IMG/VR virus record: IMGVR_UViG_2562617151_000002 | Location: 1-16,232 of that record | Reading direction: 5' to 3' (one strand) | Length of the DNA: 16,232 bases | From: a virus | Taxonomy: Duplodnaviria; Heunggongvirae; Uroviricota; Caudoviricetes | Part shown: one piece after another, positions 1,697 through 16,232 of the stretch | How the letters are laid out: the number at the start of each line of letters is the position of its first letter | Position numbering within the stretch: position 1 is the stretch's first letter | The notes under the pieces: generated by a model | What the model saw: only the letters and a program-made list of their open reading frames with translations | The model's database searches: none | What the model was told of the DNA's origin: nothing | Program-made: the position numbers and the translations under genes

Positions 1697-2058
1697 TATG
1701 CTCCAGCCTCCGGTGCTTTTGGCATTACTGCCCAGTGAGTGATATTGAAGTTTTCAAGGTCCCCGACCTGAAATGTCCACTGCCATTCTCCGGTTTCTTT
1801 TTGTCCCCAGGTGTACCAGAGAGAACGCCAGCCAATCAGCCAGCCTTCTCCATTAGCATCAAATAACAGAACACTTTCATTTGCTGGTGGCAGTTCAGCT
1901 GACACTGGTATTATTTTGTTTTCCAGTGCCGCACATTTAGCTTCAAGCGCGTCGAATTTACGTAACAGGTACTCAGCATTTGTTTCATTCACTTTCAGAT
2001 CTCGCGGTACACATTTCCCGCGAAGAAACCCTTCCATTTCGAAAACATTCATGCGCAT
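1696..2058 (-). CDS. Hypothetical phage protein (120 aa, Trp-rich C-terminus)
   Basis: ATG at 2058-2056 is the first gene of the leftward operon. C-terminal GEGWLIGWRSLWYTWGQKETGEWQW pattern resembles small lambdoid b-region/Ea-type proteins. Assignment is by position only. Confidence 0.5.
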   Translation of the reverse strand: MRMNVFEMEGFLRGKCVPRDLKVNETNAEYLLRKFDALEAKCAALENKIIPVSAELPPANESVLLFDANGEGWLIGWRSLWYTWGQKETGEWQWTFQVGDLENFNITHWAVMPKAPEAGA

Positions 2059-2180
2059 TTGCGTAACTCCGATAACTCGTTAAAACGTTCCATAAACATC
2101 CCGTAACCGCAATGCGTCGAATGTTTATCAGCTTAACGTTGCGAAGCTTCAGGCTGCGGCATTTTCTCAACTGTCAGATT

Positions 2181-2240
2181 CTGACCCGTCAAAATCTGAC
2201 GCATCAAAATCTGACCCGTCAAAATTTGATGCGTCGAAAT
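2181..2240. repeat. Four tandem 15-bp iteron-like repeats
   Basis: Units read directly: CTGACCCGTCAAAAT, CTGACGCATCAAAAT, CTGACCCGTCAAAAT, TTGATGCGTCGAAAT. Each carries a 10-bp near-palindrome (TGACNNGTCA) followed by an A-tract. Partial units flank both sides. Confidence 0.6.
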
Positions 2241-2260
2241 CTGGCAAAAAAGCGGGTTTT

Positions 2261-2320
2261 CACCCGTCAGAATCTGGCGGGGATCCGTCAGTAAAATCAA
2301 AACATGATCCGTCAGATAAA
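2261..2320. repeat. Additional CCGTCAG half-site repeats
   Basis: CCGTCAG occurs at 2264-2270, 2285-2291 and 2309-2315, each followed by A-rich sequence. Looks like a continuation of the iteron array. Confidence 0.4.
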
Positions 2321-2814
2321 AAACCTTCTCGTCCGGACGCTTCGCAACCGGACACGCAGACGGCTGAACAGGATTTTTTAACTCGCCATCCTGATGCGGT
2401 TGTATTCAGCCCTAAAAAGCGCCAGTGGGGGACGCAGGATGATTTGACCTGCGCACAGTGGCTCTGGAAAAAAATCATCGCCCTGTACGAGCAGGCTGCC
2501 GAATGTGACGGCGAGGTGGTTCGTCCCAAAGAACCGAACTGGACAGCCTGGGCAAACGAAATTCGCCTGATGTGTGTGCAGGATGGTCGTACTCACAAAC
2601 AAATCTGCGAGATGTACAGCCGCGTCAGCCGCGATCCGTTCTGGTGCCGTAACGTGCTCAGCCCGTCGAAGCTGCGGGAAAAATGGGATGAGCTTTCCCT
2701 GCGCTTATCGCCGTCCGTAAGCACGTACACCGAAAAACGCGAAGACGCGTACTTCAAAGCCAGTTACGACAACGTGGACTACAGCCAGATCCCGGCAGGA
2801 TTCAGGGGGTAATC

Positions 2815-3303
2815 ATGAGTCTTTTGAATGAAGTTCAGAAATTCATTGAAGCCCATCCGGGGTGTACTTCCGGAGACATTGCGGATGCTTTTGCAGGCTA
2901 CTCACGGCAGCGCGTTCTGCAGTCAGCAAGCAAGTTACGTCAGAGTGGGCGTGTGGCTCACCGTTGTGAAGGGGATACACGCAGACATTTCCCGCGCCTG
3001 ACTGAGAGAGCGCAGGAGCCGGAACCACAACCAGTTCGTGAAACCAGACCTGCGCGCAATTTCTATGTCGGCACTAACGATCCACGGGTAATTTTGTGCC
3101 TGACCCGCCAGGCTGAAGAACTGGAGTCCAGGGGCTTATACCGTCGTGCTGCAACCGTGTGGATGGCGGCATTCCGTGAAAGCCACTCCCAACCAGAACG
3201 AAACAATTTTCTGGCGCGTCGTGAGCGGTGTTTACGGAAAAGCAGCAAGCGCGCTGCATCGGGTGAAGAGTGGTATCTGTCAGGGAATTACGTGGGGGCT
3301 TAA
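2815..3303 (+). CDS. Putative regulator: N-terminal wHTH-like region plus PerC-like C-terminal domain
   Basis: ATG 2815 follows the upstream stop by 2 nt. C-terminal segment QAEELESRGLYRRAATVWMAAFRESHSQPERNNFLARRERCLR matches the PerC/Pch family signature (LE..GLYRRAA..W). N-terminus MSLLNEVQKFIEAHPGCTSGDIADAF looks like a small HTH. Confidence 0.5.
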   Translation: MSLLNEVQKFIEAHPGCTSGDIADAFAGYSRQRVLQSASKLRQSGRVAHRCEGDTRRHFPRLTERAQEPEPQPVRETRPARNFYVGTNDPRVILCLTRQAEELESRGLYRRAATVWMAAFRESHSQPERNNFLARRERCLRKSSKRAASGEEWYLSGNYVGA

Positions 3304-3956
3304 TGAGTAATAAATATTGCCAGGCGCTGGTGGAACTGCGGAACAAACCAGCCCATGAACTGAAGGAAGTGGGCGATCAGTGGCGCACGCCGGACAACAT
3401 TTTCTGGGGAATTAACACCCTGTTTGGCCCGTTTGTTCTGGATCTGTTCACTGACGGTGATAACACCAAATGTGCTGCGTATTACACGGCGGAAGACAAC
3501 GCGCTGGCGCATGACTGGTCAGAACGTCTTGCGGAGCTTAAAGGTGCTGCCTTTGGTAATCCCCCATACAGCCGCGCCAGTCAGCATGAGGGGCAATACA
3601 TCACAGGCATGCGTTACATCATGAAGCATGCCAGTGCCATGCGTGATAAAGGTGGGCGCTATGTTTTCCTGATCAAAGCTGCCACCAGCGAAGTGTGGTG
3701 GCCGGAAGATGCAGATCATATTGCTTTTATTCGCGGGCGTATTGGTTTTGAACTGCCTGCCTGGTTTATCCCGAAAGATGAGAAGCAGGTGCCGACAGGC
3801 GCTTTCTTCGCTGGTGCTATTGCTGTTTTCGACAAGACCTGGAAGGGACCGGCAATCAGCTACATCGGGCGCGATGAACTTGAGGCATGTGGTGAGGCGT
3901 TTCTGGCGCAGGTTCGCCAGCAGGCGGAAAAACTGGTCAGGGAGATGGCGGCATGA
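3303..3956 (+). CDS. Phage DNA N6-adenine methyltransferase (Dam-type, orphan)
   Basis: ATG 3303 overlaps the upstream stop (TAATG). Translation has W-TP near the N-terminus, FVLDLFTDGDN, and the catalytic NPPY motif (GNPPYSRAS). An in-frame GTG at 3270 is a less likely start. No restriction partner is adjacent. Confidence 0.8.
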   Translation: MSNKYCQALVELRNKPAHELKEVGDQWRTPDNIFWGINTLFGPFVLDLFTDGDNTKCAAYYTAEDNALAHDWSERLAELKGAAFGNPPYSRASQHEGQYITGMRYIMKHASAMRDKGGRYVFLIKAATSEVWWPEDADHIAFIRGRIGFELPAWFIPKDEKQVPTGAFFAGAIAVFDKTWKGPAISYIGRDELEACGEAFLAQVRQQAEKLVREMAA

Positions 3957-4279
3957 CGACGTTAACTCAATGCCAGCAGCAGGTGCTGGATATGCTGATT
4001 TCTTATCAGAAAGAACGTGGCTTCCCGCCAACCAATCAGGAGGTGGCAACCATGCTGGGATACCGTTCAGTGAATGCAGCGGTGGAGCATCTTCGCGCAC
4101 TGGAGAAAAAAGGCGTCATCACGATAAAGCGTGGTGTGGCCCGGGGGATCACGCTTCATACCGTGGTGAAGGACGACGACAGCGAGGCGGTCGGGATTAT
4201 CCGCTCACTGCTTGCCGGTGAGGAAAACGCCAGGCTGCGTGCAGCCCACTGGTTACATGAGAGGGGCCTGAAAGTATGA
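3953..4279 (+). CDS. LexA N-terminal DNA-binding-domain homolog lacking the S24 peptidase domain
   Basis: ATG 3953 overlaps the dam stop (ATGA). The 108-aa product aligns by eye with LexA residues 1-70 (LT..QQ.V.D.I...G.PPT..E.A..LGYRS.NAA.EHL.AL.KKGVI.I..G..RGI.L). The protein ends before any Ala-Gly cleavage site or Ser/Lys dyad. Confidence 0.75.
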   Translation: MTTLTQCQQQVLDMLISYQKERGFPPTNQEVATMLGYRSVNAAVEHLRALEKKGVITIKRGVARGITLHTVVKDDDSEAVGIIRSLLAGEENARLRAAHWLHERGLKV

Positions 4280-4671
4280 AGCTGATCCTACCTTTTCCGC
4301 CCAGCGTGAACACGTACTGGCGACACCCCAACAAAGGGGCGTTTGCTGGTAAGAGCCTGATAAGCGCGGCGGGGCGAAAATTCCAGAGCGCGGCGTGTGC
4401 AGCAATAGTTGAGCAGTTACGTCGTCTGCCGAAACCAACGTCGGCACCTGCTTCAGTGGAGATCGTGTTGTTTCCTCCGGATAACCGGATCCGCGATCTG
4501 GACAACTATAACAAGGCGCTGTTTGACGCCCTGACCCACGCGGGTGTGTGGGAAGACGACAGTCAGGTGAAAAGAATGCTGGTGGAGTGGGGACCGGTTA
4601 TCCCGGAGGGGAAGGTCGAGATCACTATCAGTAAGTACGAAAAAGCGAGTTGCAAATTAGCAACTCGGTAA
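4276..4671 (+). CDS. rusA: RusA-family Holliday junction resolvase
   Basis: ATG 4276 overlaps the upstream stop (ATGA). Translation has LPFPPSVNTYWR and RDLDNYNKALFDALTHAGVWEDDSQV, the RusA core with catalytic Asp residues. Confidence 0.8.
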   Translation: MKLILPFPPSVNTYWRHPNKGAFAGKSLISAAGRKFQSAACAAIVEQLRRLPKPTSAPASVEIVLFPPDNRIRDLDNYNKALFDALTHAGVWEDDSQVKRMLVEWGPVIPEGKVEITISKYEKASCKLATR

Positions 4672-4716
4672 CGGAATTGAGCAACACCCTAAATTTGGGT
4701 ATTACCTCGTTAAAGA

Positions 4717-4736
4717 TACTGTATTTATGAACAGTG
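4717..4736. promoter_or_regulatory. Near-consensus LexA operator (SOS box)
   Basis: TACTGTATTTATGAACAGTG matches the E. coli LexA box TACTG-(N10)-CAGTA, with CTGT at 4719-4722 and ACAG at 4731-4734. It sits about 100 bp upstream of the next gene start, next to a candidate TTGATA(4742-4747)-17-TAAGTT(4765-4770) promoter. Confidence 0.65.
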
Positions 4737-4833
4737 TATCCTTGATAACTATTAAAAATCGCAGTAAGTTCATCCTGCATCAACGAAAAGGGAGTGCAGT
4801 CCCGCTCGTGGATAAAAATTTGTGGAGAAACCA

Positions 4834-5649
4834 ATGAATCAGTTGCTTGTAATTGATGGCGTTTCTGTGCGCCAGTACTTCGAATCTAACTACTGTCTTA
4901 ACGACCTTCAGAAAGCAGCTCTTCTTGCCGCTGGTGAGAATCGCTCCTCCCGTTCGCTGGAAGTTCACGAGTTTATGCGTCGTCCTGAAACGAAGGCTCT
5001 TGTGGAATTATTGGAAGAAGAAACTACGGGAGATTCCCGTAGTATTCCTGTCATCACCATTCAGGGGCGCAATGGTGGGACGTATGTCTGTAAAGAGCTG
5101 GTCTATGCATATGCAATGTGGATCAGCCCGGCATTCAGCTTAAAAGTGATACGTACTTTTGATGCGCTTCATAATTCATCACCAGAAGAAACCACATCCG
5201 ACAAAATTAAATCCGGGGTCATTCTGCTTGAATCAGCAGCAAAGACTCTAAATCTGTCAAACTCCTCGAAACTTGGTGCATACCAGAAATTATCAAAGGT
5301 AGCTGGTCTTCCTGAACTTATGCCGATCTATGCCATTGATGCACCTGCTGATGCGCCAGATGGTTCAAGCCGCCCTACGCTGTCGCTGAGTGCACTGCTG
5401 AAGCAGTATGGTATCCGCCTGACGGCTAATCAGGCATATCACCAGATGGCGAAGCTGGGGATCGTTGAACAACGCGAACGATACAGCCGTACCGCGATTA
5501 ACAACATCAAAAAATTCTGGTCGCTGACCGCGAAAGGCTGCATGTTCGGCAAGAACATCACCAGTCCTGCAAATCCGCGCGAGACGCAGCCGCATTTCTT
5601 CGAATCCCGATTCCCTGAGCTGTTAAAGCTGCTCGATACCGTTCATTGA
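4834..5649 (+). CDS. Phage antirepressor-like protein (Bro-N/AntA-like N-terminus, KilA-C/ANT-like C-terminus)
   Basis: ATG 4834 has GGAG 6 nt upstream; the in-frame GTG at 4822 is less likely. N-terminal LLVIDGVSVRQYFESNYCLNDLQKAA ... GTYVCKELVYAYAMWISPAFSLKVI and C-terminal AKLGIVEQRE ... KGCMFGKNI resemble phage antirepressor domains. Confidence 0.6.
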   Translation: MNQLLVIDGVSVRQYFESNYCLNDLQKAALLAAGENRSSRSLEVHEFMRRPETKALVELLEEETTGDSRSIPVITIQGRNGGTYVCKELVYAYAMWISPAFSLKVIRTFDALHNSSPEETTSDKIKSGVILLESAAKTLNLSNSSKLGAYQKLSKVAGLPELMPIYAIDAPADAPDGSSRPTLSLSALLKQYGIRLTANQAYHQMAKLGIVEQRERYSRTAINNIKKFWSLTAKGCMFGKNITSPANPRETQPHFFESRFPELLKLLDTVH

Positions 5650-5650
5650 G

Positions 5651-6646
5651 GTGACCGTGAGAGCACTACTGACCCCTGAAATTGCCCCGCGTATGGGGAT
5701 CGTATTGTTCAGACCAGGTTCAGAGCTGATGCCCTTGTTTATGCAGGGGCGTGTCCTGCTGGAGCCTGAGCCGGAACGTTATTCATCTTTCGCCAGTGGT
5801 GCCGTTCCGGCGGCATCACAACCGCTGGCGGATGATCCTGCCGTTCGGGCCGTGTTCCGCAATGAGGCAGTGATCCGTCGTGCTGGTGGCGTGGAATGTC
5901 TTGAAAGCTGGTTACTTCGTGAAAAAGGCTGCCAGTGGCCTCATTCCGACTGGCACAGCGAGAACATGACAACAATGCGACACGCTCCGGGCGCAATCCG
6001 TCTGTGCTGGCACTGCGATAACCAGCTGCGCGATCAGTTCACGGAACGGCTGGAATCAATGGCAACGGATAACTGTGCCCGCTGGGTGTTGTCTGTTGTG
6101 CGTCGGGATCTCGGTTTTGATGACAGTCATGTTGTGACAATGCCGGAACTGTGCTGGTGGCTGATTCGTAATGATCTGGCGGATGCCTTACCGGAAAGTG
6201 CAGCCCGTAAGGCACTGAGATTACCGAAGCCTGTTGTGCCGTCTGTTACCCGGGAAAGTGACCTTGTGCCTTCGGTTCCTGCCACCAGCATCATCCAGGA
6301 TAAGGCGAAAAAGGTGCTGGCGCTGAAAGTGGATCCGGAGTCGCCGGAGTCTTTTATGTTACGCCCAAAACGTCACCGCTGGGTTAATGAAAAGTACACG
6401 CGCTGGGTTAAGACGCAGCCGTGCGCATGTTGTGGAAAACCTGCTGATGATCCCCACCACCTGATAGGCCACGGTCAGGGGGGAATGGGTACAAAAGCGC
6501 ATGACCTTTTTGTGTTGCCTTTGTGCAGAAAGCATCACGACGAGCTGCATGCGGATACCGTGGCATTTGAAGAGAAGTATGGCTCCCAGCTGGAGCTGAT
6601 ATTTCGTTTTATCGATCGCGCACTGGCGATTGGTGTGCTGGCCTGA
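5651..6646 (+). CDS. Prophage protein with C-terminal Cys/His HNH-like motif (DUF968-like)
   Basis: 331-aa ORF immediately after the upstream stop. C-terminus [23 protein letters not shown] ... [10 protein letters not shown] looks like a zinc-binding HNH-type module. Start is uncertain: GTG 5651, GTG 5657 or ATG 5693. Confidence 0.55.
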
Positions 6647-6663
6647 TTTTGTGGAGAAAGTTA

Positions 6664-7047
6664 ATGCGTGATATTCAGATGGTTCTTGAACGTTGGGGAG
6701 CGTGGGCGGCTAATAATCATGAAGATGTGACCTGGTCGTCCATTGCCGCCGGTTTTAAGGGATTAATTCCTTCAAAAGTAAAATCTCGCCCGCAATGTTG
6801 TGACGATGACGCGATGATCATTTGCGGGTGCATGGCCCGTCTGAAAAAGAACAACAGCGATTTACACGATTTATTAGTAGATTATTATGTATGTGGTATG
6901 ACATTCATGTCACTGGCAAGTAAGCATTGCTGCTCGGATGGTTATATCGGGAAAAGGTTACAGAAGGCTGAGGGCATAATTGAAGGGATGTTAATGGCAT
7001 TAGATATCCGGTTAGATATGGATATCGTTGCTAATAATTCTAATTGA
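6664..7047 (+). CDS. Late-gene antiterminator Q-like protein (small QuuD-type)
   Basis: ATG 6664 preceded by GGAG (6652-6655). The 127-aa product is Cys-rich ([23 protein letters not shown]), consistent with a zinc-binding Q. It lies directly upstream of the porin and lysis genes, as in DLP12. The ORF track extends to TTG 6649. Confidence 0.6.
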
Positions 7048-7079
7048 TATGCAATTGTTTACTAAAAGTTATTAAAAAT

Positions 7080-7098
7080 GGGGCGTGGAAACGCCCCC
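7080..7098 (-). terminator. Rho-independent terminator candidate for the porin gene
   Basis: 7-bp GC stem GGGGCGT/ACGCCCC with a 4-nt loop. On the minus strand it is followed by ATTTTTAAT. It lies about 140 nt downstream of the porin stop. Confidence 0.5.
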
Positions 7099-7184
7099 AA
7101 AATAAAGGGTAATATATAACAGAAGGTTTATATAGTAAGAAGCAAGGTAGTGCTTCTAAAGGAAGTGGCTTGAGGGCTCCACTT

Positions 7185-7224
7185 ATATGTTGCGGAGGCA
7201 AAGCCTCCCGCAACATATCTTTTT
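7185..7224 (+). terminator. Rho-independent terminator candidate downstream of Q
   Basis: Long inverted repeat ATATGTTGCGGAGGC / GCCTCCCGCAACATAT (one bulge) followed by CTTTTT on the plus strand. Confidence 0.55.
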
Positions 7225-7235
7225 CGTAAGTCAGA

Positions 7236-8318
7236 TTAGAACTGATAAACCAGACCTACAGCGACGATGTCGTCGGTATCAATACCAGCTGTTTTGGTAA
7301 ACTTACTATCGTCAATTAAGTTGATTTTGTAATCAACAAAAGTGGACATGTTTTTATTAAAGTAGTAAGTAGCACCGACATCGACATACTTGACTAAGTC
7401 TCGGTCACCATGAACACCAAGGTCTTTACCTTTTGACTGAAGGTAAGCAACAGATGGACGCAGACCGAAGTCAAACTGATATTGTGCTACTGCTTCAAAG
7501 TTTTGTGCTTTGTTTGCAATATGGTTATTACCAAAAACGGTCATATTCTGAGTTTCAGAATATGTGGTAGCCAGATAGATATTGTTCGCATCATATTTCA
7601 GGCCTGCAGCCCATACTTCCGCATTTTTGCCGGAGGCATTGAATTTGCTCTTACCATAGGCGACCTGACCGTCAGTGCGATCTGATTTAGCATAGGTTGC
7701 ACCCACGCCGAATCCTTCATACTCATAAGTAGTGGAGAAACCGAAACCATCACCATTGGCTTCAGTTACGTCAGTGCGGTCATTTTTACCCTGATACTGA
7801 GCAGCAAAGTTCAGGCCATCGACCAGACCAAAGAAGTCGTTGTTACGATAAGTTGCAACACCAGTAGTGCGACCAGTCATGAACACATCTGTTTGGGTCC
7901 AGGTATCACCACCGAATTCTGGCAGGACGTCAGTCCACGCACCGATGTCGTATGCTACACCGTAGTTACGGCCGTAATCGATTGAGCCGTAATCACCAAA
8001 TTTCAGGCCTGCAAATGCAAGACGGGTTTTGTCTTTGGAAGAACCTTGAGATTCAGCACGGTTGCCTTTGAATTCATATTCCCACTGACCGAAACCAGTC
8101 AGTTGATCGTTGATTTGGGTTTCACCTTTGAAGCCAAGACGGGCATAAGTAGTATCACCATCATCTGCATCATTAGAGGAGAAGTAGTGCTTGGCATTAA
8201 CTTTCCCGTATAGATCCAGCTTGTTACTGTCTTTATTATAAATTTCAGCTGCCTGAGCAGACATCGCCATCAGTACTGATGCAGCTACAGCAGAAATTGC
8301 CACTGTTAATTTTTTCAT
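7236..8318 (-). CDS. nmpC: Prophage-encoded general porin (OmpC/OmpF/PhoE family; NmpC/Lc type)
   Basis: 360-aa ORF with a signal peptide ([23 protein letters not shown]|AEIYNKD), porin motifs ([52 protein letters not shown]) and C-terminal VGLVYQF. It sits between Q and the holin on the opposite strand, as nmpC does in DLP12 and lc in PA-2. The exact symbol is uncertain. Confidence 0.85.
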
Positions 8319-8745
8319 TGTACGCCCTTTTTTTTGAACTATTATTAAAAAATGATGTCACTGCGCGATAAATATTCATCTAATCAATGCGATTATTTCA
8401 AGATGTAAGTTTTAGTTTCTCATTTAATTTGTGAAGTAGATCTCTATTTTTATCTAAACCTTTTCTATCTAATCCTATTCATGGCTCTTGTTTGAACGAA
8501 AATAAATCTATTAGCTAATTTATATTAATGGCACTTATTTATAAGAGATCTATAATTCTTTAGCTTAATTTAAACAAACTAAAAATAACATCGGAAATTA
8601 TTCATTGGTTATTTGTTGAAGTTTTCTTATGTATTTGTGGTGGTGTTTTGAACACTCGGTGGCATTCTCACAAATATCATTTAGTAGTTTACGTACGTAA
8701 AAAATTGGTTATGCTGTTAAGAGTGGTTACTTCGTCACACAGCTT
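8319..8745. promoter_or_regulatory. AT-rich non-coding region upstream of the porin and lysis cassette
   Basis: About 430 bp with no ORF of 60 aa or more and many A/T runs (8340-8640). Probably holds the porin promoter (minus strand) and possibly a late promoter, for example TTGAAC at 8648-8653 with AAATAT about 18 bp downstream. Confidence 0.4.
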
Positions 8746-8775
8746 AAACCCGCCGTCGAGCGGGTTTTTCCATTT
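8746..8775 (+). terminator. Rho-independent terminator candidate about 130 bp upstream of the holin (tR'-like)
   Basis: Stem AACCCGC/GCGGGTT (8747-8753 / 8760-8766) with loop CGTCGA, followed by TTTTCCATTTTTT on the plus strand. Confidence 0.5.
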
Positions 8776-8907
8776 TTTGAGTCTCGATATTAGCTGATAA
8801 CCCAATACCTGAGTTATTCACTGACTCCGAATCTGTTACGTTTCTGCCTTTATTGCGATACGTAGTATCCCCTTAATTTACACCCGCTTTGTCTGCGAGG
8901 TGGGGTT

Positions 8908-9123
8908 ATGAAATCCATGGATAAGTTAACAACGGGTGTCGCCTATGGCACCTCAGCAGGTAGTGCCGGATACTGGTTTTTACAGCTGCTAGATAAAGTC
9001 ACGCCCTCACAGTGGGCGGCAATTGGAGTGCTGGGTAGCCTGGTATTTGGCCTGCTGACGTACCTGACAAACCTTTATTTCAAGATTAAAGAAGATAAGC
9101 GCAAGGCTGCGAGAGGTGGATAA
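8908..9123 (+). CDS. S: Class II holin, phage-21 S-type (pinholin) with dual-start motif
   Basis: 71-aa ORF beginning MKSM (Met1 and Met4). Two hydrophobic segments and a basic C-terminus ([13 protein letters not shown]). Stop overlaps the endolysin start (TAATG). Confidence 0.85.
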
Positions 9124-9620
9124 TGCCTCCATCATTACGAAAAGCTGTTGCTGCTGCTATTGGTGGCGGGGCTATTGCTATAGCATCTGTGTTAATCACT
9201 GGCCCAAGTGGTAACGATGGTCTGGAAGGTGTGAGACATAATCCTTACAAAGACATAGTTGGTGTATGGACTGTATGTTACGGGCATACAGGAAAAGACA
9301 TCATTCCCGGTAAAACGTATACCGAAGCAGAGTGCAAAGCCCTCCTGAATAAAGACCTTGCCACTGTCGCCAGACAAATTAACCCGTACATCAAAGTCGA
9401 TATACCGGAAACAACGCGCGGCGCTCTTTACTCGTTCGTCTACAACGTGGGTGCTGGCAATTTCAGAACATCGACGCTTCTTCGCAAAATCAACCAGGGC
9501 GATATCAAAGGCGCATGTGACCAGCTACGTCGCTGGACATACGCTGGCGGTAAGCAATGGAAAGGGCTGATGACTCGCCGTGAGATTGAGCGTGAAGTCT
9601 GTTTGTGGGGGCAGCAATGA
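9123..9620 (+). CDS. R: SAR endolysin (T4-lysozyme-like muramidase, R21-type)
   Basis: N-terminal Gly/Ala-rich signal-anchor-release segment [30 protein letters not shown], followed by a lysozyme catalytic region ([25 protein letters not shown]). 165 aa. Confidence 0.9.
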
Positions 9621-10054
9621 GCAGGTTAACCGCGATTATCTCCGCTCTGGTTATCTGCATCATCGTCTGTCTGTCATGGGCTGTTAATCATTACCGTGAT
9701 AACGCCATTACCTATAAAGAACAGCGCGATAAAGCCACGTACATCATCGCTGACATGCAGAAGCGTCAACGTGACGTAGCAGAACTCGATGCCAGATATA
9801 CAAAGGAGCTTGCTGATGCTAACGCGACTATCGAAAGTCTCCGTGCTGATGTTTCTGCTGGGCGTAAGCGCCTGCAAGTCGCCGCCACCTGTGCAAAGTC
9901 AACGACCGGAGCCAGCGGCATGGGCGATGGAGAAAGCCCAGGACTTACAGCAGATGCTGAACTCAATTATTACCGTCTCCGAAGTGGAATCGACAAGATA
10001 ACCGCGCAGGTTAACTACCTGCAGGAATACATCAGGACGCAATGCCTGAATTAA
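9617..10054 (+). CDS. Rz: Rz i-spanin
   Basis: ATG 9617 overlaps the endolysin stop (ATGA). N-terminal TM segment ([20 protein letters not shown]), then a coiled-coil periplasmic domain. The ORF track extends to GTG 9605. Confidence 0.8.
9816..10001 (+). CDS. Rz1: Rz1 o-spanin lipoprotein, embedded in Rz in the +1 frame
   Basis: ATG 9816 preceded by AAAGGAG (9802-9808). Lipoprotein signal [20 protein letters not shown], then a Pro-rich mature region ([13 protein letters not shown]). Lies entirely within the Rz coordinates. Confidence 0.7.
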
Positions 10055-10083
10055 TTTTTTTGCAAATCACAAAGTCCATTTAA

Positions 10084-10107
10084 TGAGCCTCGCGATGCGG
10101 GGCTTTT
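10084..10107 (+). terminator. Terminator candidate after Rz (first of two)
   Basis: Hairpin GAGCCTCGC-GAT-GCGGGGCT followed by TTTTT. Confidence 0.45.
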
Positions 10108-10114
10108 TGCAATA

Positions 10115-10139
10115 AATGCGTACCGCAACGCATGTTTTT
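10115..10139 (+). terminator. Terminator candidate after Rz (second of two)
   Basis: Stem ATGCGT/ACGCAT with loop ACCGCA, followed by GTTTTTT. Confidence 0.55.
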
Positions 10140-10255
10140 TACACCGAACCTGCCCCTTTGGAATGGGCCTTTGAGGATACCAGTTAGTGCTGGCGAGCCT
10201 CGGTGGGCTGGTTTCCTGTGCGGCAAAGGTTCATTTCAAAGAGTAGGTACACGCT

Positions 10256-10753
10256 ATGAAATCATTAACCCTCTTCAATCAACCAATTCGTATCGGTGAA
10301 GATGGCATGATCTGCCTCACTGATATGTGGAAAGCCAGTGGTAAAAGTGAATCTGAATCGCCTTACCACTACCTGCGAAACAAGCAGACCAAAGAGTTCT
10401 TAGCCGAGCTGGAGAAAAACCACGAATCTGTGGTTTTTACTGAGCGCGGTGTACACGGTGGAACATATGGCGGGAAGTTTGTTGCTTACGATTATGCGGC
10501 TTGGTTAAACCCCGGGTTCAAGTACGCGGCCTATAAAGTCCTCGATGACTACTTCACCGGAGAACTTCAGCATCGCAACAGCTTAAGTGCGCAGCTCAAC
10601 ATGAAATGTCATGAGTTTGACCAGAAGAAAGACATGGCGAGCTTCTGCGGACAAGGGCTGGCAGCATGGCGCTATACGAAGCCAGTGTTGGTCGCTGAGA
10701 TTAACTCCCTGGCTAACCAGCTGCAGATTACGATCCCCGGGCTTCCGGGATGA
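10256..10753 (+). CDS. KilA-N domain protein
   Basis: ATG 10256 preceded by AGAGTAGG. Translation FNQPIRIGEDGMICLTDMWKASGK ... GTYGGKFVAYDYAAWLNPGFKYA fits the KilA-N/APSES-type fold pattern. Occupies the post-lysis position where bor sits in DLP12. Confidence 0.7.
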   Translation: MKSLTLFNQPIRIGEDGMICLTDMWKASGKSESESPYHYLRNKQTKEFLAELEKNHESVVFTERGVHGGTYGGKFVAYDYAAWLNPGFKYAAYKVLDDYFTGELQHRNSLSAQLNMKCHEFDQKKDMASFCGQGLAAWRYTKPVLVAEINSLANQLQITIPGLPG

Positions 10754-11007
10754 GTGATCGTGTTATTGAATGCGCCTCCAGAGCGGGGCGCGACTTCTCA
10801 GAGTTCATGAAAGGCGAGAAGGGCATGATGGAAGCATTGGCCTCGGTGGATGAGTTTGGCGAGCAGCTGCGCCTCAACGGCTGTGTCAATCATCACTTTG
10901 TTAGCTACATGATGCGGAACTCGATCATGCAGGCATTCATGGACATGGCAAAAGCCGAGAGGAAAGAAGAGCGCCGGCGTAAGCGAGCGGAAGCAAAAGC
11001 GAAGTAG
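10750..11007 (+). CDS. Hypothetical protein (85 aa) with basic C-terminal tail
   Basis: ATG 10750 overlaps the KilA-N stop (ATGA). C-terminus KAERKEERRRKRAEAKAK. No recognisable family. Confidence 0.5.
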   Translation: MSDRVIECASRAGRDFSEFMKGEKGMMEALASVDEFGEQLRLNGCVNHHFVSYMMRNSIMQAFMDMAKAERKEERRRKRAEAKAK

Positions 11008-11293
11008 CCATTACAAAGCCTATCTACGGGTGGGCTTGATAATGGCTTATACCCTACACGGGATAACTTAACTGATATCCCTTTTAAAGGATAAAGGTAT
11101 TCAAGCCTGACACATCATGCGCTGTATCGTCGCCGTGTTCCCGTATTAACAGAGACCGTAGCCCGACGGGGAACTCCTTCTGCGCGAGTGTGCGGGAATA
11201 ATCAAAAACGATGCACACCGGGGTTACCGGGTACACATATTTCATCATGCCAGCGAGTCCGGTTCTGGCACGGAAGAAACCGGACGTTATGAT

Positions 11294-11704
11294 TTAGTGC
11301 GGAAATATTTGTGTAGTGTTCTGAATGTTCTCAGTAAAGAGTAATGAATTATCAAAGGTATAGTAATACCTTTTGTTTTCGTGGATATTTGTAATCCATC
11401 TGAAAACCCCTGCTGTAGCAAGATTTTTCCTGTATTCGTAAAATGATAACTCTCCTGATTTGAATCCTTTTAAGGTGGCTTCTATAAGGCATTTATTTTT
11501 TGAAAATCTTACATTTACAACCTTACCCTGTCCTTTTATTAAAACCGTATTATCGTTTTCAAGAACAAGATGAATATTCTCTGTGGCTAAATAGTAAATG
11601 TAATGTGAGACATTGTGACGTTTTAGTTCAGAATAAAACCAGTGATAGTTTAAATTATTTCGCACTTTATCGAATATTTGTTTAAAAATGGCAACCTGAG
11701 CCAT
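11294..11704 (-). CDS. AT-rich cargo gene, hypothetical (possibly YbcV-like envelope-protein family)
   Basis: Visibly lower G+C than its flanks. The ATG at 11704-11702 has GGAAGG 8 nt upstream and gives 136 aa; the ORF track starts 5 codons earlier at 11719. Opposite strand to the late operon. The family guess rests on position and size only. Confidence 0.5.
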
Positions 11705-11761
11705 TGTAGTACCTTCCATGTGATATGAGGGGGCGTAGTCTGCACGATTATCTAGATTGCT

Positions 11762-11995
11762 TCAATCTGGTCTAACCTGTTTTCTGAGCAATTCAGTAAT
11801 GTCACTCTTTTCTTTGTTTGCTTCAGGCGAAACTCTTTTTTCTGAGCACAGTCTCCGGCGGCAGGCTTCAATGACCCAGGCTGAGAAATTCCCGGACCCT
11901 TTTTGAACAAGAGCGATGTTAATTTGTTCAATCATTTGGTTAGGAAAGCGGATGTTGCGGGTTGTTGTTCTGCGGGTTCTGTTCTTCGTTGACAT
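11762..11995 (-). CDS. Small basic ribbon-helix-helix-like putative DNA-binding protein
   Basis: 77-aa ORF. N-terminal basic stretch then IRFPNQMIEQINIALVQKGSGNFSAWVIEACRRRL looks like an Arc/MetJ-type strand-helix-helix. Lies 42 bp upstream of the AT-rich gene on the same strand. Confidence 0.45.
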   Translation of the reverse strand: MSTKNRTRRTTTRNIRFPNQMIEQINIALVQKGSGNFSAWVIEACRRRLCSEKRVSPEANKEKSDITELLRKQVRPD

Positions 11996-12059
11996 GAGGT
12001 TGCCCTGTATTCAGTGTCGCTGATTTGTATTGTCTGAAGTTGTTTTTACGTTAAGTTGA

Positions 12060-12376
12060 TGCAGATCAATTAATACGATACCTGCGTCATAATTGATTAT
12101 TTGACGTGGTTTGATGGCGTAGATGCACGTTGTGACATGTAGATGATAATTATTATCATTTTTCGGGTCCTTTCCGGCGATCCGACAGGTTACGGGGCGG
12201 CGACCTCGCGGGTTTTCGCTATTTATGAAAATTTTCCGGTTTAAGGCGTTTCCGTTCTTCTTCGTCGTAACTTAATGTTTTTATTTAAAATACCCCCTGA
12301 AAAGAAAGGAAACGACAGGTGCTGAAAACGAACTTTTGGGCCTCTGTCGTTTCCTTTCTCTGTTTTGGGCCGTGGA
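12060..12376. other. cos: Lambda-type cohesive-end site (cosQ-cosN-cosB)
   Basis: From my recollection of the lambda genome ends: ...CCGACAGGTTACG followed by cosN GGGCGGCGACCT at 12175-12186, then the cosB region CGCGGGTTTTCGCTATTTATGAAAATTTTCCGGTTTAAGGCG... up to the nu1 start, with only a few substitutions. Confidence 0.85.
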
Positions 12377-12383
12377 ATGAACA

Positions 12384-12457
12384 ATGGAAGTCAACAAAAA
12401 GCAGCTGGCTGACATTTTCGGTGCGAGTATCCGTACCATTCAGAACTGGCAGGAACA
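12384..12457 (+). pseudogene. nu1: Terminase small subunit nu1, 5' stub (first about 25 codons only)
   Basis: ATGGAAGTCAACAAAAAGCAGCTGGCTGACATTTTCGGTGCGAGTATCCGTACCATTCAGAACTGGCAGGAACA matches the lambda nu1 start (MEVNKKQLADIFGASIRTIQNWQE). Identity ends after 12457 and the frame stops soon after. Confidence 0.85.
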
Positions 12458-12661
12458 CCGGGCAGCATGGCGGACAGTCGGTCGCAGGCGTCCGGGAAGT
12501 TTGAGCAGAATAACCATGTGGTGATTAACAACGACGGCACGAACGGGCAGATAGGTCCGGCTGCTCTGAAGGCGGTGTATGACATGGCCCGCAAGGGTGC
12601 CCGTGATGAAATTCAGACACAGATGCGTGATGGTGGCCTGTTCTCCGGAGGTGGACGATGA
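12458..12661 (+). pseudogene. H: 3' remnant of tail tape-measure gene H
   Basis: Sequence after the junction encodes ...SQASGKFEQNNHVVINNDGTNGQIGPAALKAVYDMARKGARDEIQTQMRDGGLFSGGGR, and its stop overlaps the M start (ATGA) as in lambda. It is in a different frame from the nu1 stub. Confidence 0.8.
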
Positions 12662-12987
12662 AGACCTTCCGCTGGAAAGTGAAACCCGGTATGGATGTGG
12701 CTTCGGTCCCTTCTGTAAGAAAGGTGCGCTTTGGTGATGGCCATTCCCAGCGAGCGCCTGCCGGGCTGAATGCCAACCTGAAAACGTACAGCGTGACGCT
12801 TTCTGTCCCCCGTGAGGAGGCCACGGTACTGGAGTCGTTTCTGGAAGAGCACGGGGGCTGGAAATCCTTTCTGTGGACGCCGCCTTATGAGTGGCGGCAG
12901 ATAAAGGTGACCTGCGCAAAATGGTCGTCGCGGGTCAGTATGCTGCGTGTTGAGTTCAGCGCAGAGTTTGAACAGGTGGTGAACTGA
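12658..12987 (+). CDS. M: Minor tail protein M (intact)
   Basis: The 109-aa product (MKTFRWKVKPGMDVASVPSVRKVRFGDG...SAEFEQVVN) matches lambda gpM from memory over essentially its full length. Confidence 0.9.
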   Translation: MKTFRWKVKPGMDVASVPSVRKVRFGDGHSQRAPAGLNANLKTYSVTLSVPREEATVLESFLEEHGGWKSFLWTPPYEWRQIKVTCAKWSSRVSMLRVEFSAEFEQVVN

Positions 12988-14936
12988 TGCAGGATAACAG
13001 CGCACAGGCGGCAGCGGCCTCGCAGACTGCATCGGCAAACTCCGCAACAGCAGCTAAAAAATCAGAAACCAACGCGAAAAATAGCGAGACAGCCGCAAAG
13101 ACGAGCGAAACCAACGCAAAGTCCAGCCAGACGGCAGCGAAGACCAGCGAAACGAATGCTAAAGCCAGTGAAACTGCAGCAAAAAACAGCCAGGTTGCAG
13201 CAGCCCAAAGCGAGAGCGCGGCAGCCGGTTCTGCGACTTCAGCAGCTGGATCAGCAACTGCTGCGGCTAACAGCCAGAAAGCTGCGAAGACGAGTGAAAC
13301 TAACGCAAAGTCCAGCCAGACGGCAGCGAAGACCAGCGAAACGAATGCCAAAGCCAGTGAAACTGCGGCGAAAAGCAGTCAGGATGCAGCAGCCCAAAGC
13401 GAGAGTGCTGCAGCTGGTTCTGCAAGCGCGGCGGCTGCTTCTGCCACTGCATCAGCCAACAGTCAAAAAGCAGCAAAAACCAGTGAAACCAATGCAAAGA
13501 CAAGCGAGACTGCAGCGGCGAACTCGGCGAAAGCATCGGCAGCAAGCCAGACGGCAGCTAAAGCAAGCGAAGATGCAGCCAGAGAGTACGCAAGCCAGGC
13601 TGCGGAGCCGTATGAATATGTCTTACAGCCGCTGCCTGATGTGTGGATACCGTTTAACGATTCGCTGGATATGATTACGGGCTTTTCGCCATCATATAAA
13701 AAAATTGTTATTGGTGACGATGAAATAACGATGCCTGGCGACAAGATTGTTAAGTTTAAACGTGCATCGAAAGCAACCTATATTAACAAATCTGGTGTGC
13801 TGACAGAGGCTGCCATTGACGAGCCACGATTTGAACGTGATGGCCTGCTTATTGAGGGGCAAAGAACAAACTACATGCTCAATTCGGAAAGCCCTGCCAG
13901 TTGGGGGCGATCGTCAAATATGGATGTGCCCGAAACTGGGACGGATAGTTTTGGTTTTACCTATGGAAAGTTTGTCTGTAACGATTCTCTGATTGGGCAA
14001 ACCTCAGCCATTAATATGGCATCAATTGCTGCAACAAAGTCAGTTGATGTCTCAGGCGATAATAAATACGTGACAACCTCATGTCGTTTTAAAACAGAAC
14101 TGCAGGTAAGGTTGCGTATCCGGTTTGATAAATATGACGGTAGCGCAACAACTTTTCTTGGTGATGCGTATATTGATACACAAACGCTTGAAACTAATAT
14201 GACAGGCGGCGCTGCCTCAAGGATTACAGCGAGAGTCAGAAAGGACGAAGCTACCGGATGGATTTTTGCAGAGGCAACAATTCAGGCAATTGATGGGGAG
14301 TTAAAAATAGGTTCTCAGATACAGTATTCTCCTAAGCAGGGCGGGGCAACCGTATCTGGTGACTATATTTATCTGGCCACCCCACAAGTAGAAAATGGGC
14401 CTTGTGTATCATCTTTTATTATATCAGGAACGACGGCGGCGACCCGTGCAAGTGATATGGTAACTATTCCCGCAAGAAACAATATTTATAAACAACCTAT
14501 CAGTGTTCTTATTGAAGTTAATAAGAATTGGGATATTGTGCCAAACGGAGCACCAAGAATTTTTGACCTGAACGCAACATCATCATTCGCTGAAGAGTCT
14601 TTTATATTTGCATTCCGAGGGCCGACATCAACAGTTCTTCCTGGATCGGCATATGTTAGTGTTGGTTCCCCGTCAAGAGGAACTGGTAACAATGAAGTTG
14701 TAAACACTGGAATATATGGAGTTAAAATAGACAAAGATGGCGGCTTAGCAGCGTCGCTGAATGGTAACATTTCATCAAAAGTCAGTACTTCATGGGGTGG
14801 TGCTATAAAATCAACGGCAATAAGAATAGGAGGGCAGACAACTGCCGGAACGAGGCATTTGTTTGGACACATCAGGAATTTCAGAATATGGCATAAAGAA
14901 TTAACTGATGCGCAAATGGGGGAGAGTATTAAATGA
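12987..14936 (+). CDS. Side-tail-fibre-like protein; apparent fusion of the L start to an internal Stf repeat region, with a lectin-like C-terminal domain
   Basis: First 10 nt ATGCAGGATA equal the lambda L start (MQD), then the sequence switches to Ala-rich AKTSETNAKSSQTAAK repeats typical of Stf. The C-terminal approx 400 aa are non-repetitive and end in GHIRNFRIWHKELTDAQM, resembling the last strand of LamG/concanavalin-like jelly rolls. ATG overlaps the M stop. Confidence 0.7.
   Translation: MQDNSAQAAAASQTASANSATAAKKSETNAKNSETAAKTSETNAKSSQTAAKTSETNAKASETAAKNSQVAAAQSESAAAGSATSAAGSATAAANSQKAAKTSETNAKSSQTAAKTSETNAKASETAAKSSQDAAAQSESAAAGSASAAAASATASANSQKAAKTSETNAKTSETAAANSAKASAASQTAAKASEDAAREYASQAAEPYEYVLQPLPDVWIPFNDSLDMITGFSPSYKKIVIGDDEITMPGDKIVKFKRASKATYINKSGVLTEAAIDEPRFERDGLLIEGQRTNYMLNSESPASWGRSSNMDVPETGTDSFGFTYGKFVCNDSLIGQTSAINMASIAATKSVDVSGDNKYVTTSCRFKTELQVRLRIRFDKYDGSATTFLGDAYIDTQTLETNMTGGAASRITARVRKDEATGWIFAEATIQAIDGELKIGSQIQYSPKQGGATVSGDYIYLATPQVENGPCVSSFIISGTTAATRASDMVTIPARNNIYKQPISVLIEVNKNWDIVPNGAPRIFDLNATSSFAEESFIFAFRGPTSTVLPGSAYVSVGSPSRGTGNNEVVNTGIYGVKIDKDGGLAASLNGNISSKVSTSWGGAIKSTAIRIGGQTTAGTRHLFGHIRNFRIWHKELTDAQMGESIK
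13116..13234. repeat. Intragenic direct repeat, copy 1 (about 119 bp)
   Basis: GCAAAGTCCAGCCAGACGGCAGCGAAGACCAGCGAAACGAATGC... recurs 189 bp downstream with a handful of substitutions. Confidence 0.7.
13305..13423. repeat. Intragenic direct repeat, copy 2 (about 119 bp)
   Basis: Near-identical to 13116-13234. The 189-bp offset equals 63 codons, so the protein repeat stays in frame. Confidence 0.7.
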
Positions 14937-15214
14937 AAGATTTAACACTCAAATTTGCCGACAGGGCCGACTTTTCGGCTTTTATGGGAAGTATTGGCTA
15001 TTATAATGACGAGTCGATGCAGGATGATATTCTTATTGATGTGATAGGTAACGTGTACAAAGAAACCGGAGAGCTGACTGAAGATGGCGAACCGGTATGT
15101 GTTAAGGAAGACGGATATTTTGTAAACGTGCGCATCATTAATGATGTGAAAACACCGTCAATATTCGATGAATACGTGGTTGCTGTTGAGCATCAACTTC
15201 GTGGCTGGATGTGA
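14933..15214 (+). CDS. Hypothetical small acidic protein (93 aa)
   Basis: ATG 14933 overlaps the fibre gene stop (ATGA). No recognisable motif. Sits where tfa would be in lambda but is not Tfa-like. Confidence 0.5.
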   Translation: MKDLTLKFADRADFSAFMGSIGYYNDESMQDDILIDVIGNVYKETGELTEDGEPVCVKEDGYFVNVRIINDVKTPSIFDEYVVAVEHQLRGWM

Positions 15215-15223
15215 GGAAGAAAA

Positions 15224-15928
15224 ATGGCTACATCGACAGTAATTCCGGGAGACATCACCACGCTAAAGGGAGATGTTAGTAAAGCAAAGGAAGATATTTC
15301 CTCTATTAACGGAAAAGTATCAACGCTTCAGACTGATATGGCCAGTGCACAGCAGGATATCAGCACCAGATACACAAAAACTGAAGTTGATAATAAGCTG
15401 AAAAACAAACTGGAAGTGAATGCTCTGGAAAGCGGTAATTATGGTGGAGATTTTTACCCGCTGACTGGTCGTGAAGCGTTTTATTTATGGAATTTGGGCA
15501 CGACTACAGCGGCGGCAAACCTTTATCTTAATCCTGACCCTGCAATTTCGTCTGTACTGCGGTCAACATCGTCTATTCGCTATAAACATTCAGTAGAGAC
15601 GATAGATTCAGAGCACGCCGATCTCATTTTCAGGATGCGCCCTGTATGGTACAGGTCGCAATGTGAAAATGACAGGCGTGACTGGGGATTCTACGGATTA
15701 ATTGCCGAGGAAGTAGGAGAAATTGCCCCTCAGTTTGTACACTGGCGACCAGCCAACGAGAATGATGCTCCTGAAGCTATTTCCAGCAATGGTCTTGTTG
15801 CCGAAGGTGTAATGTACGAACGTCTGGTTGTTCCACTGATTCACCATATCCAGAAACTGACTGAAAGAGTTGATGAACTTGAGTCAGAATTGAAGTTGTT
15901 ATCAACTTCCCAAAGCGATATCGGATAA
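15224..15928 (+). CDS. Short coiled-coil fibre-like protein with C-terminal intramolecular chaperone (peptidase S74-like) domain
   Basis: ATG 15224 preceded by GAGGAAGA. N-terminal heptad-like region. C-terminus has the motif series seen in tail-spike chaperone domains: SSIRYK (compare SDIRLK), WGFYGLIAEEVGEIAPQFV (compare GVIAQEVEEVFPEVV), GVMYERLVVPLIHHIQKLTERVDELE. Confidence 0.6.
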   Translation: MATSTVIPGDITTLKGDVSKAKEDISSINGKVSTLQTDMASAQQDISTRYTKTEVDNKLKNKLEVNALESGNYGGDFYPLTGREAFYLWNLGTTTAAANLYLNPDPAISSVLRSTSSIRYKHSVETIDSEHADLIFRMRPVWYRSQCENDRRDWGFYGLIAEEVGEIAPQFVHWRPANENDAPEAISSNGLVAEGVMYERLVVPLIHHIQKLTERVDELESELKLLSTSQSDIG

Positions 15929-15938
15929 AGGAGGAGTA

Positions 15939-16232
15939 ATGGATATAACACCTTTTCTTCATGCGCTTTGTGCTGTGGCTGCGCAGGTAATGATTGGTCT
16001 TTTTGCCGGAAACTGGGTTTACGGGGCGATAGCCGGTTGTACGTTCTTCATTGCGCGTGAACACACCCAGGCAGAATATCGCTGGATTGAAATGTTCGGG
16101 CATGGCAAGCGGATTAACATGCCGTGGTGGGGCGGTTTTGATCCGCGTGTTTGGGATGTGGCAAGCCTGATAGATTTTGCTGTGCCGGTGGTGGCGTGTC
16201 TGCTGGTCTGGCTGTTGGTTAATCGTGGGTGA
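15939..16232 (+). CDS. Small integral membrane protein (two predicted TM segments)
   Basis: ATG 15939 preceded by AAGGAGGAG. Hydrophobic segments ALCAVAAQVMIGLFAGNWVYGAIAGCTFFI and LIDFAVPVVACLLVWLLV. Stop codon is the last triplet of the window. Confidence 0.5.
   Translation: MDITPFLHALCAVAAQVMIGLFAGNWVYGAIAGCTFFIAREHTQAEYRWIEMFGHGKRINMPWWGGFDPRVWDVASLIDFAVPVVACLLVWLLVNRG

Follow-up and report, generated by a model that had tools for sequence, protein, structure and literature searches.

Three genes behind a side tail fibre gene

Positions 1 to 16,232 of the IMG/VR virus record IMGVR_UViG_2562617151_000002, the 16,232-nucleotide (nt) stretch that we refer to as the window, hold a lambdoid prophage of Escherichia coli at the DLP12 site (argU/intD). 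At the 3' end of the window, the side tail fibre gene (stf) is followed on the same strand by a cassette of three genes encoding proteins of 93, 234 and 97 amino acids (aa) (Table 1). The initial annotation, made from the sequence alone, had described these genes as tightly spaced and each provided with a strong Shine-Dalgarno site, and the gene calls agree with this layout. The fibre stop codon (TGA, 14934-14936) overlaps the ATG of the 93-aa gene as ATGA, the two following gaps are 9 and 10 nt, and a purine-rich Shine-Dalgarno-like site lies 4-8 nt 5' of each start. The proteins match PHROG families with E-values of 3e-45 (93 aa), 9e-140 (234 aa) and 1.5e-57 (97 aa), and identical sequences are present on 152, 115 and 958 public contigs, respectively. 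Pairwise comparison with relatives gave ratios of nonsynonymous to synonymous substitution rates (dN/dS) of 0.15-0.5, indicating purifying selection on all three. The strong family matches and these ratios together show that the open reading frames (ORFs) are real, selected genes and not chance ORFs. Three antisense ORFs (15777-16103, 14486-14872 and 15001-15138) were dismissed, as they had no family match. We found neither a promoter-like nor a terminator-like site on the plus strand inside the cassette; separate transcription units are therefore unsupported, and the absence of such sites fits co-transcription of the three genes with the fibre gene. The G+C content of the cassette is 40-48%, lower than the ~56% of the fibre gene's repeat part.

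The cassette had been thought to continue past the edge of the window, but the window closes with the TGA of the 97-aa gene as its final three bases, and the next real gene of the source contig, a ybcY-like methyltransferase gene, lies on the opposite strand. Beyond the window the contig contains a 3' remnant of tfa, a hairpin, ybcY, an omptin gene and an AraC-type gene, and from this we conclude that the cassette ends with the 97-aa gene. An opposite-strand gene likewise follows the 97-aa gene in PhiR49_1, HannyBb, phage 21 and strain FG92-1. Read by eye, the lambda-type tfa 3' end comes directly after the 97-aa gene (locus L170, 9262-9440, of the source contig) and is succeeded by a GC-rich hairpin with a T-run. 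This remnant appears to have been left by an earlier stf-tfa arrangement, since replaced by the present cassette. Many predicted provirus contigs (IMG/VR loci L020-L099) stop exactly 3 nt past the 97-aa stop codon, as the window does. Because so many of them end at the same point, the window edge is probably a provirus-boundary call and not biology.

Table 1 Features of the fibre locus and the cassette in the window.
Feature	Position	Strand	Basis or remark
Deletion joint 1	12452-12457		BLAST; nohD 5' end joined to 3' end of tape-measure gene
Deletion joint 2	12987-12996		BLAST; start of tail gene L (MQD...) fused in frame to ~codon 147 of stf; 10-nt overlap
Truncated side tail fibre, 649 aa	12987-14936	+	Start codon plus first three codons of L fused to stf
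Shine-Dalgarno-like site, 93-aa gene	14921-14924	+	GGAG
93-aa gene	14933-15214	+	ORF call
Shine-Dalgarno-like site, 234-aa gene	15213-15217	+	GAGGA
234-aa gene, putative mini distal fibre	15224-15928	+	ORF call; PHROG phrog_3299, Pfam, structure model
N-terminal adaptor, codons 1-20	15224-15283	+	N-terminus comparison; left edge of swappable segment
Coiled-coil stalk, codons 9-50	15248-15373	+	Heptad register, helix in structure model
Peptidase_S74 intramolecular-chaperone domain, codons 116-234	15569-15925	+	Pfam PF13884
SSIRYK motif, residues 116-121	15569-15586	+	S-x-x-R-x-K
Shine-Dalgarno-like site, 97-aa gene	15929-15934	+	AGGAGG
97-aa gene	15939-16232	+	ORF call
Loop of 97-aa protein, residues 37-72	16047-16154	+	Almost invariant: FIAREHTQAEYRWI..FG.GKR.NMPWWGGFD

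The 234-aa protein and a proposed distal-fibre slot

The 234-aa protein had been described as a short coiled coil joined to a self-cleaving chaperone domain of the kind found in tail spikes and fibres, and the identity of both parts is confirmed. The Peptidase_S74 profile (PF13884) matches residues 116-172 through its positions 1-57 of 58 and scores 27.2 bits, where the curated cut-off is 22; the domain opens with SSIRYK and carries a GLIAEE motif at residues 158-163. The only sequence match of this region in the PDB is the chaperone end of DT57C LtfA (8hqz_d), with an E-value of 1e-6 for the single sequence and 4e-7 for the profile; the chain was identified as DT57C LtfA from the published structure (PMC10713586). 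The AlphaFold2 (AF2) model of the protein has a pLDDT score (predicted local distance difference test) of 70.7 overall and 79-96 over residues 121-230, and a search with it returned only solved chaperone domains (MyRF ICA, endoNF and GA-1 3gud), which places it in this fold. In an alignment of 28 homologues with identities as low as 28%, neither S116 nor K121 varies; E125, P140, V141, Y143, R144, S145, D150, G158, I160, A161 and E162 are likewise invariant, while R119 is conserved in most rows. Ser116 is thus the predicted nucleophile and Lys121 the predicted base. Cleavage before Ser116, in agreement with the earlier placement near residue 115, is predicted to yield fragments of residues 1-115 (12.4 kDa) and 116-234 (13.7 kDa). 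The arrangement resembles endoNF (3GW6), the GA-1 neck appendage (3GUD), T5 pb1 and MyRF ICA (7DC3), where the S74 domain is also C-terminal and follows a trimeric stalk, and all share the S-x-x-R-x-K motif, with Lys five residues after Ser. In contrast to these classical examples, the carrier is far shorter, identity to the solved domains is 10-26%, and cleavage is a prediction.

The stalk comprises six heptads (GDITTLK, GDVSKAK, EDISSIN, GKVSTLQ, TDMASAQ and QDISTRY), each with a hydrophobic residue at positions 3 and 6, and the AF2 model contains a helix at residues 9-47. A natural 227-aa variant is short by exactly one heptad. The stalk also gives weak matches to the coiled coil of the P22 tail needle gp26 (PDB 4lin, E 5e-4). 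The ~50 residues between the stalk and the cleavage site (66-115) are modelled at low confidence as four short strands and are conserved, not variable.

Since the protein aligns to the last ~238 positions of phrog_3299 (1147-1384 of 1385), its residues ~75-234 are homologous to the C-termini of longer fibres, and the prophage around it is decayed, the ORF could be the 3' leftover of a long fibre gene whose receptor-binding part was deleted, with no present function. We consider this very improbable. The ORF has its own Shine-Dalgarno site and start codon as well as an N-terminal adaptor that is absent from the long fibres; lytic T1-like phages preserve its architecture and length in proteins that are 56-60% identical to it; and the dN/dS against PhiR49_1 is 0.15, the catalytic residues are intact, and the length variants differ by whole heptads.

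The adaptor comprises the first 20 residues (MATSTVIPGDITTLKGDVSK in the window), with the consensus M-[AV]-T-x-T-V-I-P-x-D-I-x-x-L-K, and matches positions 1-32 of phrog_4563. We found it at the N-termini of the corresponding proteins of PhiR49_1, PeterMerian, HannyBb (343 aa), ESCO3 (351 aa), Stokescottia (576 aa) and IrisVonRoten (574 aa). The last four are otherwise unrelated to the 234-aa protein, and each has its own S74 domain. At the DNA level, homology to HannyBb and ESCO3 spans 14826-15283, that is, the last ~110 nt of stf, the 93-aa gene and the 234-aa gene up to codon 20, where it stops; homology to HannyBb restarts at 15938, 1 nt before the 97-aa gene. These breaks bear out the earlier view of the site as a recombination hotspot. 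In a census of 80 related E. coli prophage loci, in which the slot was defined as the position upstream of the 97-aa gene, ~45 loci hold a protein of 227-241 aa, ~26 hold a 345/346-aa protein of the HannyBb type, and ~7-9 have no distal fibre. The shared adaptor, the homology breaks and the census indicate a distal-fibre slot that is optional and swappable, with the 234-aa gene as its shortest and commonest allele. A chaperone domain on so small a protein had been regarded as exceptional, a view that does not stand: the 90%-identity cluster of the 234-aa protein has 2,928 members, and stand-alone proteins of 227-241 aa occupy about 45 of the 80 slots.

The gene order, a proximal fibre and then an adaptor-bearing distal fibre, is that of two-part lateral fibres, and the succession of a lectin-tipped fibre, a 92-93-aa protein and a chaperone-bearing distal fibre recurs in lambdoid (PhiR49_1, HannyBb), T1-like (PeterMerian), 9g-like (ESCO3) and T5-like phages (Stokescottia, IrisVonRoten), as well as in the Seuratvirus VogelGryff. 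It has been reported that small siphoviruses can have lateral fibres made of a single polypeptide or of at least two (BASEL-1 paper). For IrisVonRoten (Bas32), the part of a preprint that deals with its fibres describes, from models, a proximal fibre, Gp22, whose galectin-like C-terminal domain protrudes, and attached to it a distal fibre, Gp24, predicted with its chaperone domain; the proximal fibre is called Gp22 once in this text and Gp23 elsewhere, and the text does not take up what the 92-aa protein might do (10.1101/2024.09.12.612763). The IrisVonRoten locus is laid out as in the window, with bas32_0022, bas32_0023 and bas32_0024 encoding the fibre, an overlapping 92-aa homologue and, after a 9-nt gap, the distal fibre, which opens with the same adaptor (MVTKTVIPTDITKLK) and has an S74 domain at its end. 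In Stokescottia, a close relative of IrisVonRoten, the proximal fibre shares 49.5% identity with the window fibre across 719 aligned positions, and the small protein shares 39% with the 93-aa protein. In contrast to the window, the IrisVonRoten distal fibre of 574 aa contains two receptor-binding domains where the 234-aa protein has ~50 residues from stalk to cleavage site, and the T5-like locus has no 97-aa membrane-protein gene. At the chaperone nucleophile position the Stokescottia distal fibre (locus L008, 5289-7019) reads C-D-E-R-L-K, against S-D-S-R-L-K in IrisVonRoten; this may be a Cys-for-Ser variant at the auto-processing site, or a nearby Ser may be the nucleophile.

Genetic evidence for such a design comes from DT57C, in which the second fibre, LtfB, is attached through the first, LtfA, by a short conserved N-terminal segment (PMC4728585). 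Both DT57C fibres carry an auto-cleaving pfam13884 domain at their end, in contrast to the proximal fibre here, which is without a chaperone domain; the DT57C adaptor is of a different type (phiEco32 gp14/gp15, 45 aa), and no small acidic gene lies between the DT57C fibre genes. Close counterparts of the 234-aa protein are the 231-aa proteins of many T1-like lytic phages, among them PeterMerian (bas05_0029) and Jahat_MG145, which are 56-60% identical over 91-93% of the length, have the same domain order and occupy the same place after a fibre gene and a 92-aa gene. These phages are lytic siphoviruses with a complete fibre gene, and no 97-aa gene follows in them. The annotations of their proteins vary between "chaperone of endosialidase", "tail fiber protein" and "putative lateral tail fiber chaperone", and the literature that we found on the S74 domain in T1-like phages does not address the small stand-alone protein.

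The depositors of the BASEL phages chose the last of these names, and the 234-aa protein could accordingly be a trans-acting assembly chaperone that is not a virion component, with its S74 domain templating trimerisation of the upstream fibre. Such a role would suit a tiny mature part that is conserved instead of hypervariable, and an upstream fibre that has neither an S74 domain nor a Tfa-type gene. We nevertheless regard it as quite unlikely. Phage 21 and many other lambdoid phages have the same type of fibre with the 92-93-aa gene and no S74 gene, which indicates that the fibre folds without an S74 protein. Moreover, the same slot holds, with the same adaptor, proteins of 343-576 aa that have clear middle domains and each carry an S74 domain. 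The solved S74 domains, those of endoNF, GA-1 and T5 pb1, act in cis on the polypeptide that they end.

Two small proteins with different linkage

The first protein of the cassette was rightly described as small and acidic; it has 93 residues and an isoelectric point (pI) of 4.19. It belongs to phrog_1361, and its only other PHROG match is 18574, both families of unknown function. Homologues were found by tblastn in 179 phage records, and the fibre C-terminal domain of the type of window residues 216-649 was found in 218. At all eight loci inspected, the gene lies directly 3' of a fibre gene whose C-terminal ~430 aa are homologous to these residues, usually with a stop/start overlap at the junction. 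These loci span five groups: lambdoid (PhiR49_1, HannyBb and phage 21), 9g-like (ESCO3), T1-like (PeterMerian), T5-like (Stokescottia) and rV5-like (EmilHeitz). In distant pairs the identities of the 93-aa protein and of the fibre fall roughly together, with 54% and 62% in phage 21, 47% and 47% in PeterMerian, 39% and 50% in Stokescottia, and 38% and 39% in EmilHeitz. Phage 21 and the rV5-like phages keep the 93-aa gene without an adaptor-bearing distal fibre, while an S74 gene lies at most 20 nt from the 93-aa gene in 11 of 11 phage records among those listed in both searches. From these linkage patterns we conclude that the 93-aa protein belongs with the proximal fibre tip and that the distal fibre depends on this pair.

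The dN/dS of the 93-aa gene is 0.16-0.52. Its product has no match in Pfam, NCBIfam or PADLOC and is not a member of the Tfa-type chaperone families; in the PDB there was no match below an E-value of 0.5, and searches with the family profiles of the 93-aa and 97-aa proteins gave nothing below 0.16. The AF2 model, built from a shallow alignment of sequences 85-98% identical, has a pLDDT of 43.9, too poor for a fold search. As in lambda Stf/Tfa, a small gene stands directly after the fibre gene and co-varies with the C-terminal domain of the fibre; unlike Tfa, the 93-aa protein is half the size and has no detectable similarity to Tfa-type families. Its position, translational coupling and co-inheritance suggest that it is probably an assembly chaperone, or a retained accessory, of the fibre C-terminal domain.

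The 97-aa protein is, as annotated, a small membrane protein. Hydropathy shows hydrophobic stretches at residues ~5-24, 25-39 and 74-94, the first two forming one stretch of ~5-39, and the phage 21 record for its homologue notes two transmembrane domains (TMHMM). The almost invariant loop given in Table 1 spans residues 37-72, and the family alignment (Escherichia, Aeromonas, Comamonas, Leclercia, Salmonella and others) has 28 invariant columns. The protein belongs to phrog_1443, a function-unknown family, and has no match in Pfam, NCBIfam, PADLOC or the PDB; ten distant family members also gave no Pfam match. A profile search of 1.84 billion representatives returned 433 clusters at 50% identity, and the best 150 of the 433 are short stand-alone proteins of 58-146 aa with no fusion partner. 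The family is spread over Gamma-, Beta-, Alpha- and Deltaproteobacteria and carries no database name.

The neighbours of the 97-aa homologues are diverse and, in four or five phage types, include receptor-binding genes. In phage 21 the gene comes directly after the fibre/92-aa pair; in a P2-like Leclercia prophage it comes directly after an S74-ended fibre; in the P22-like Gally and 611R6 it lies between the tailspike and integrase genes; in a Kuttervirus-like lytic phage contig a full-length homologue lies between two tailspikes; and in Comamonas it is preceded by a 72-aa ORF and the gene of a giant tail-tip protein of the GpJ type (2,520 aa). We rejected the idea that the gene is always prophage-borne beside a receptor-binding gene: among 44 upstream ORFs at 44 loci of species-representative genomes, only a minority belong to tail-fibre families. 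The other upstream neighbours include pirin (in three Aeromonas genomes), DNA ligase, DAHP synthase, RNase PH and similar genes, and such housekeeping neighbourhoods occur in Aeromonas, sphingomonads and others. The linkage of the 97-aa gene is independent of fibre type, and our reading is that the protein belongs to a cellular family of small membrane proteins that phages have repeatedly captured beside receptor-binding genes.

The initial annotation had pointed to exclusion or defence cargo. In this explanation the cassette, or at least the 97-aa protein, would be exclusion, defence or lysogenic-conversion cargo that alters the envelope against adsorption or injection by related phages. Several observations point that way. 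The P22-like homologues sit between tailspike and integrase, a classic site of conversion genes, and in Gally (locus L012, 3789-3855) a terminator-like hairpin with a 9-bp stem and a promoter-like site separate the tailspike gene from the 97-aa homologue, a moron-type layout; promoter-like sites in Gally are no more frequent than in shuffled sequence. The strong matches in the phage collection are mostly in temperate-type Escherichia phages, the invariant loop of a membrane protein suggests a conserved host target, and Cor, Llp and Gtr are known precedents beside receptor-binding genes. Against these stand the lack of any defence or exclusion family match for the three proteins in PADLOC, with none in Pfam or NCBIfam for the 97-aa protein; the coupling of the window copy to the late operon, with a 10-nt gap, no promoter-like site of its own and no moron layout; the full-length copy in the lytic Kuttervirus-like contig; the many copies in housekeeping chromosomal contexts; and a sequence that does not co-vary with its very different neighbouring receptor-binding proteins. 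We judge the cargo explanation unlikely; among roles for the 97-aa protein, one at the envelope or in exclusion is our most plausible guess.

A bolder proposal, which we offer tentatively and do not expect to hold as a whole, is that the 97-aa protein represents an undescribed, host-derived family of small inner-membrane proteins with an almost invariant 35-residue loop (REHTQAEYRW...MPWWGGFD), which phages of at least four morphotypes (lambdoid, P22-like, P2-like and Kuttervirus-like) have independently placed beside receptor-binding genes. It would act on a conserved envelope process, such as polysaccharide or lipopolysaccharide (LPS) export or DNA entry, either as receptor-independent exclusion or as a block of adsorption to the producing cell, and the 93-aa protein would represent a new class of fibre-tip chaperone for lectin-tipped fibres. 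In the literature we found no mention of the three cassette proteins by accession number or PHROG id.

A probable distal fibre module in a decayed prophage

The initial annotation overlooked that the fibre gene upstream of the cassette is a fusion that has lost its N-terminal part, and that the prophage around it lacks tail genes. A close relative of the window prophage has the full set of head and tail genes, and BLAST comparison with it revealed two deletion joints in the window (Table 1). The resulting 649-aa fibre covers positions 150-793 of the 793 of phrog_1419, while its full-length relatives are 790-812 aa and keep their N-terminus. It is without the N-terminal tail anchor and is thus not an anchored proximal fibre. 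It retains the Ala/Ser/Thr-rich repeat shaft and the C-terminal receptor-binding part of ~430 aa with a lectin-like end, including a region like the head spike fibre of gene transfer agents (GTAs) at residues 288-488 (NCBIfam NF048003); the C-terminal region also matches the RcGTA head spike fibre (PDB 6tb9, E 1.2e-5). Within the shaft (13000-13600), Ala/Ser/Thr-rich near-repeats (SETNAK.., AAKTSETNAK..) and internal duplications of ~250 nt with 81-84% identity are visible, with a very high AT skew and ~56% G+C, a composition clearly unlike that of the fibre tip and the cassette (40-48% G+C). The fused protein is found on one public contig only, the source contig itself (GCA_000158415.2, JH660540.1). 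Of the head and tail genes of the prophage only M, a tail gene, survives; the integrase, regulatory, Q, porin and lysis genes are retained. The porin gene, of the OmpC/NmpC type, is intact (360 aa; 7236-8318, minus strand) and lies between the Q antiterminator and lysis genes. Because the fibre has no anchor and the head and tail genes are lost, the locus is a remnant and not a working two-part fibre, and the cassette by itself is unable to build fibres.

The reading that we favour, and consider probable, places the cassette at the distal end of a lambdoid late (tail) operon and divides it into three separable modules. The genes had been taken as one functional unit, a view at odds with the different linkage of each. 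In the favoured reading, the 93-aa protein, translationally coupled to the fibre, would most likely help the lectin-tipped C-terminal domain to fold or trimerise, or would stay bound to it. The ~20-residue N-terminus of the 234-aa protein would dock it onto the tip of the proximal fibre, the six heptads would form a trimeric coiled-coil stalk, and the ~50 residues beyond would form a small beta tip. The C-terminal S74 domain would nucleate folding of the trimer and then cut itself off at Ser116, with Lys121 as the base, leaving a mature subunit of 12.4 kDa. The 97-aa protein would be unrelated to the fibre, a conserved small inner-membrane protein that phages of several morphotypes have put repeatedly at the ends of receptor-binding clusters, most likely with a role at the host envelope or in exclusion. 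In the window prophage itself, the module would persist as intact, recombination-ready spare parts.

Several points weigh against this reading. With the fibre truncated as it is here, nothing would be assemblable on a tail. Both the cleavage and the presence of residues 1-115 in virions are predictions. The tip of ~50 residues is well conserved between lambdoid and T1-like proteins, unlike a typical specificity tip, and may not bind a receptor at all. The BASEL authors' label of lateral tail fibre chaperone stands on both T1-like and Seuratvirus proteins. The 93-aa protein does not resemble any known fibre chaperone, and the AF2 model made for it is unusable. Many members of the 97-aa family lie in non-phage chromosomal neighbourhoods, and the role that we give to this protein is purely inferred.

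As to the fibre, the locus adds little that is new: it is a lambdoid, decayed example of the modular side fibre with proximal and distal parts, a design already recognised in T5-like and other coliphages and annotated in databases. It does map the exact boundaries of the swap, the left one at codon 20 of the distal fibre and the right one at the start of the 97-aa gene, and the conserved 20-residue adaptor could serve to graft new receptor-binding modules onto lambda-type side fibres. The remaining interest lies in the two uncharacterised small proteins, the 93-aa protein that always accompanies this fibre tip and the 97-aa protein that stands beside many different receptor-binding genes. The present significance of the window genes is likely that of recombination donors for incoming lambdoid phages, an idea on which part of a published study bears (PMC3945230).

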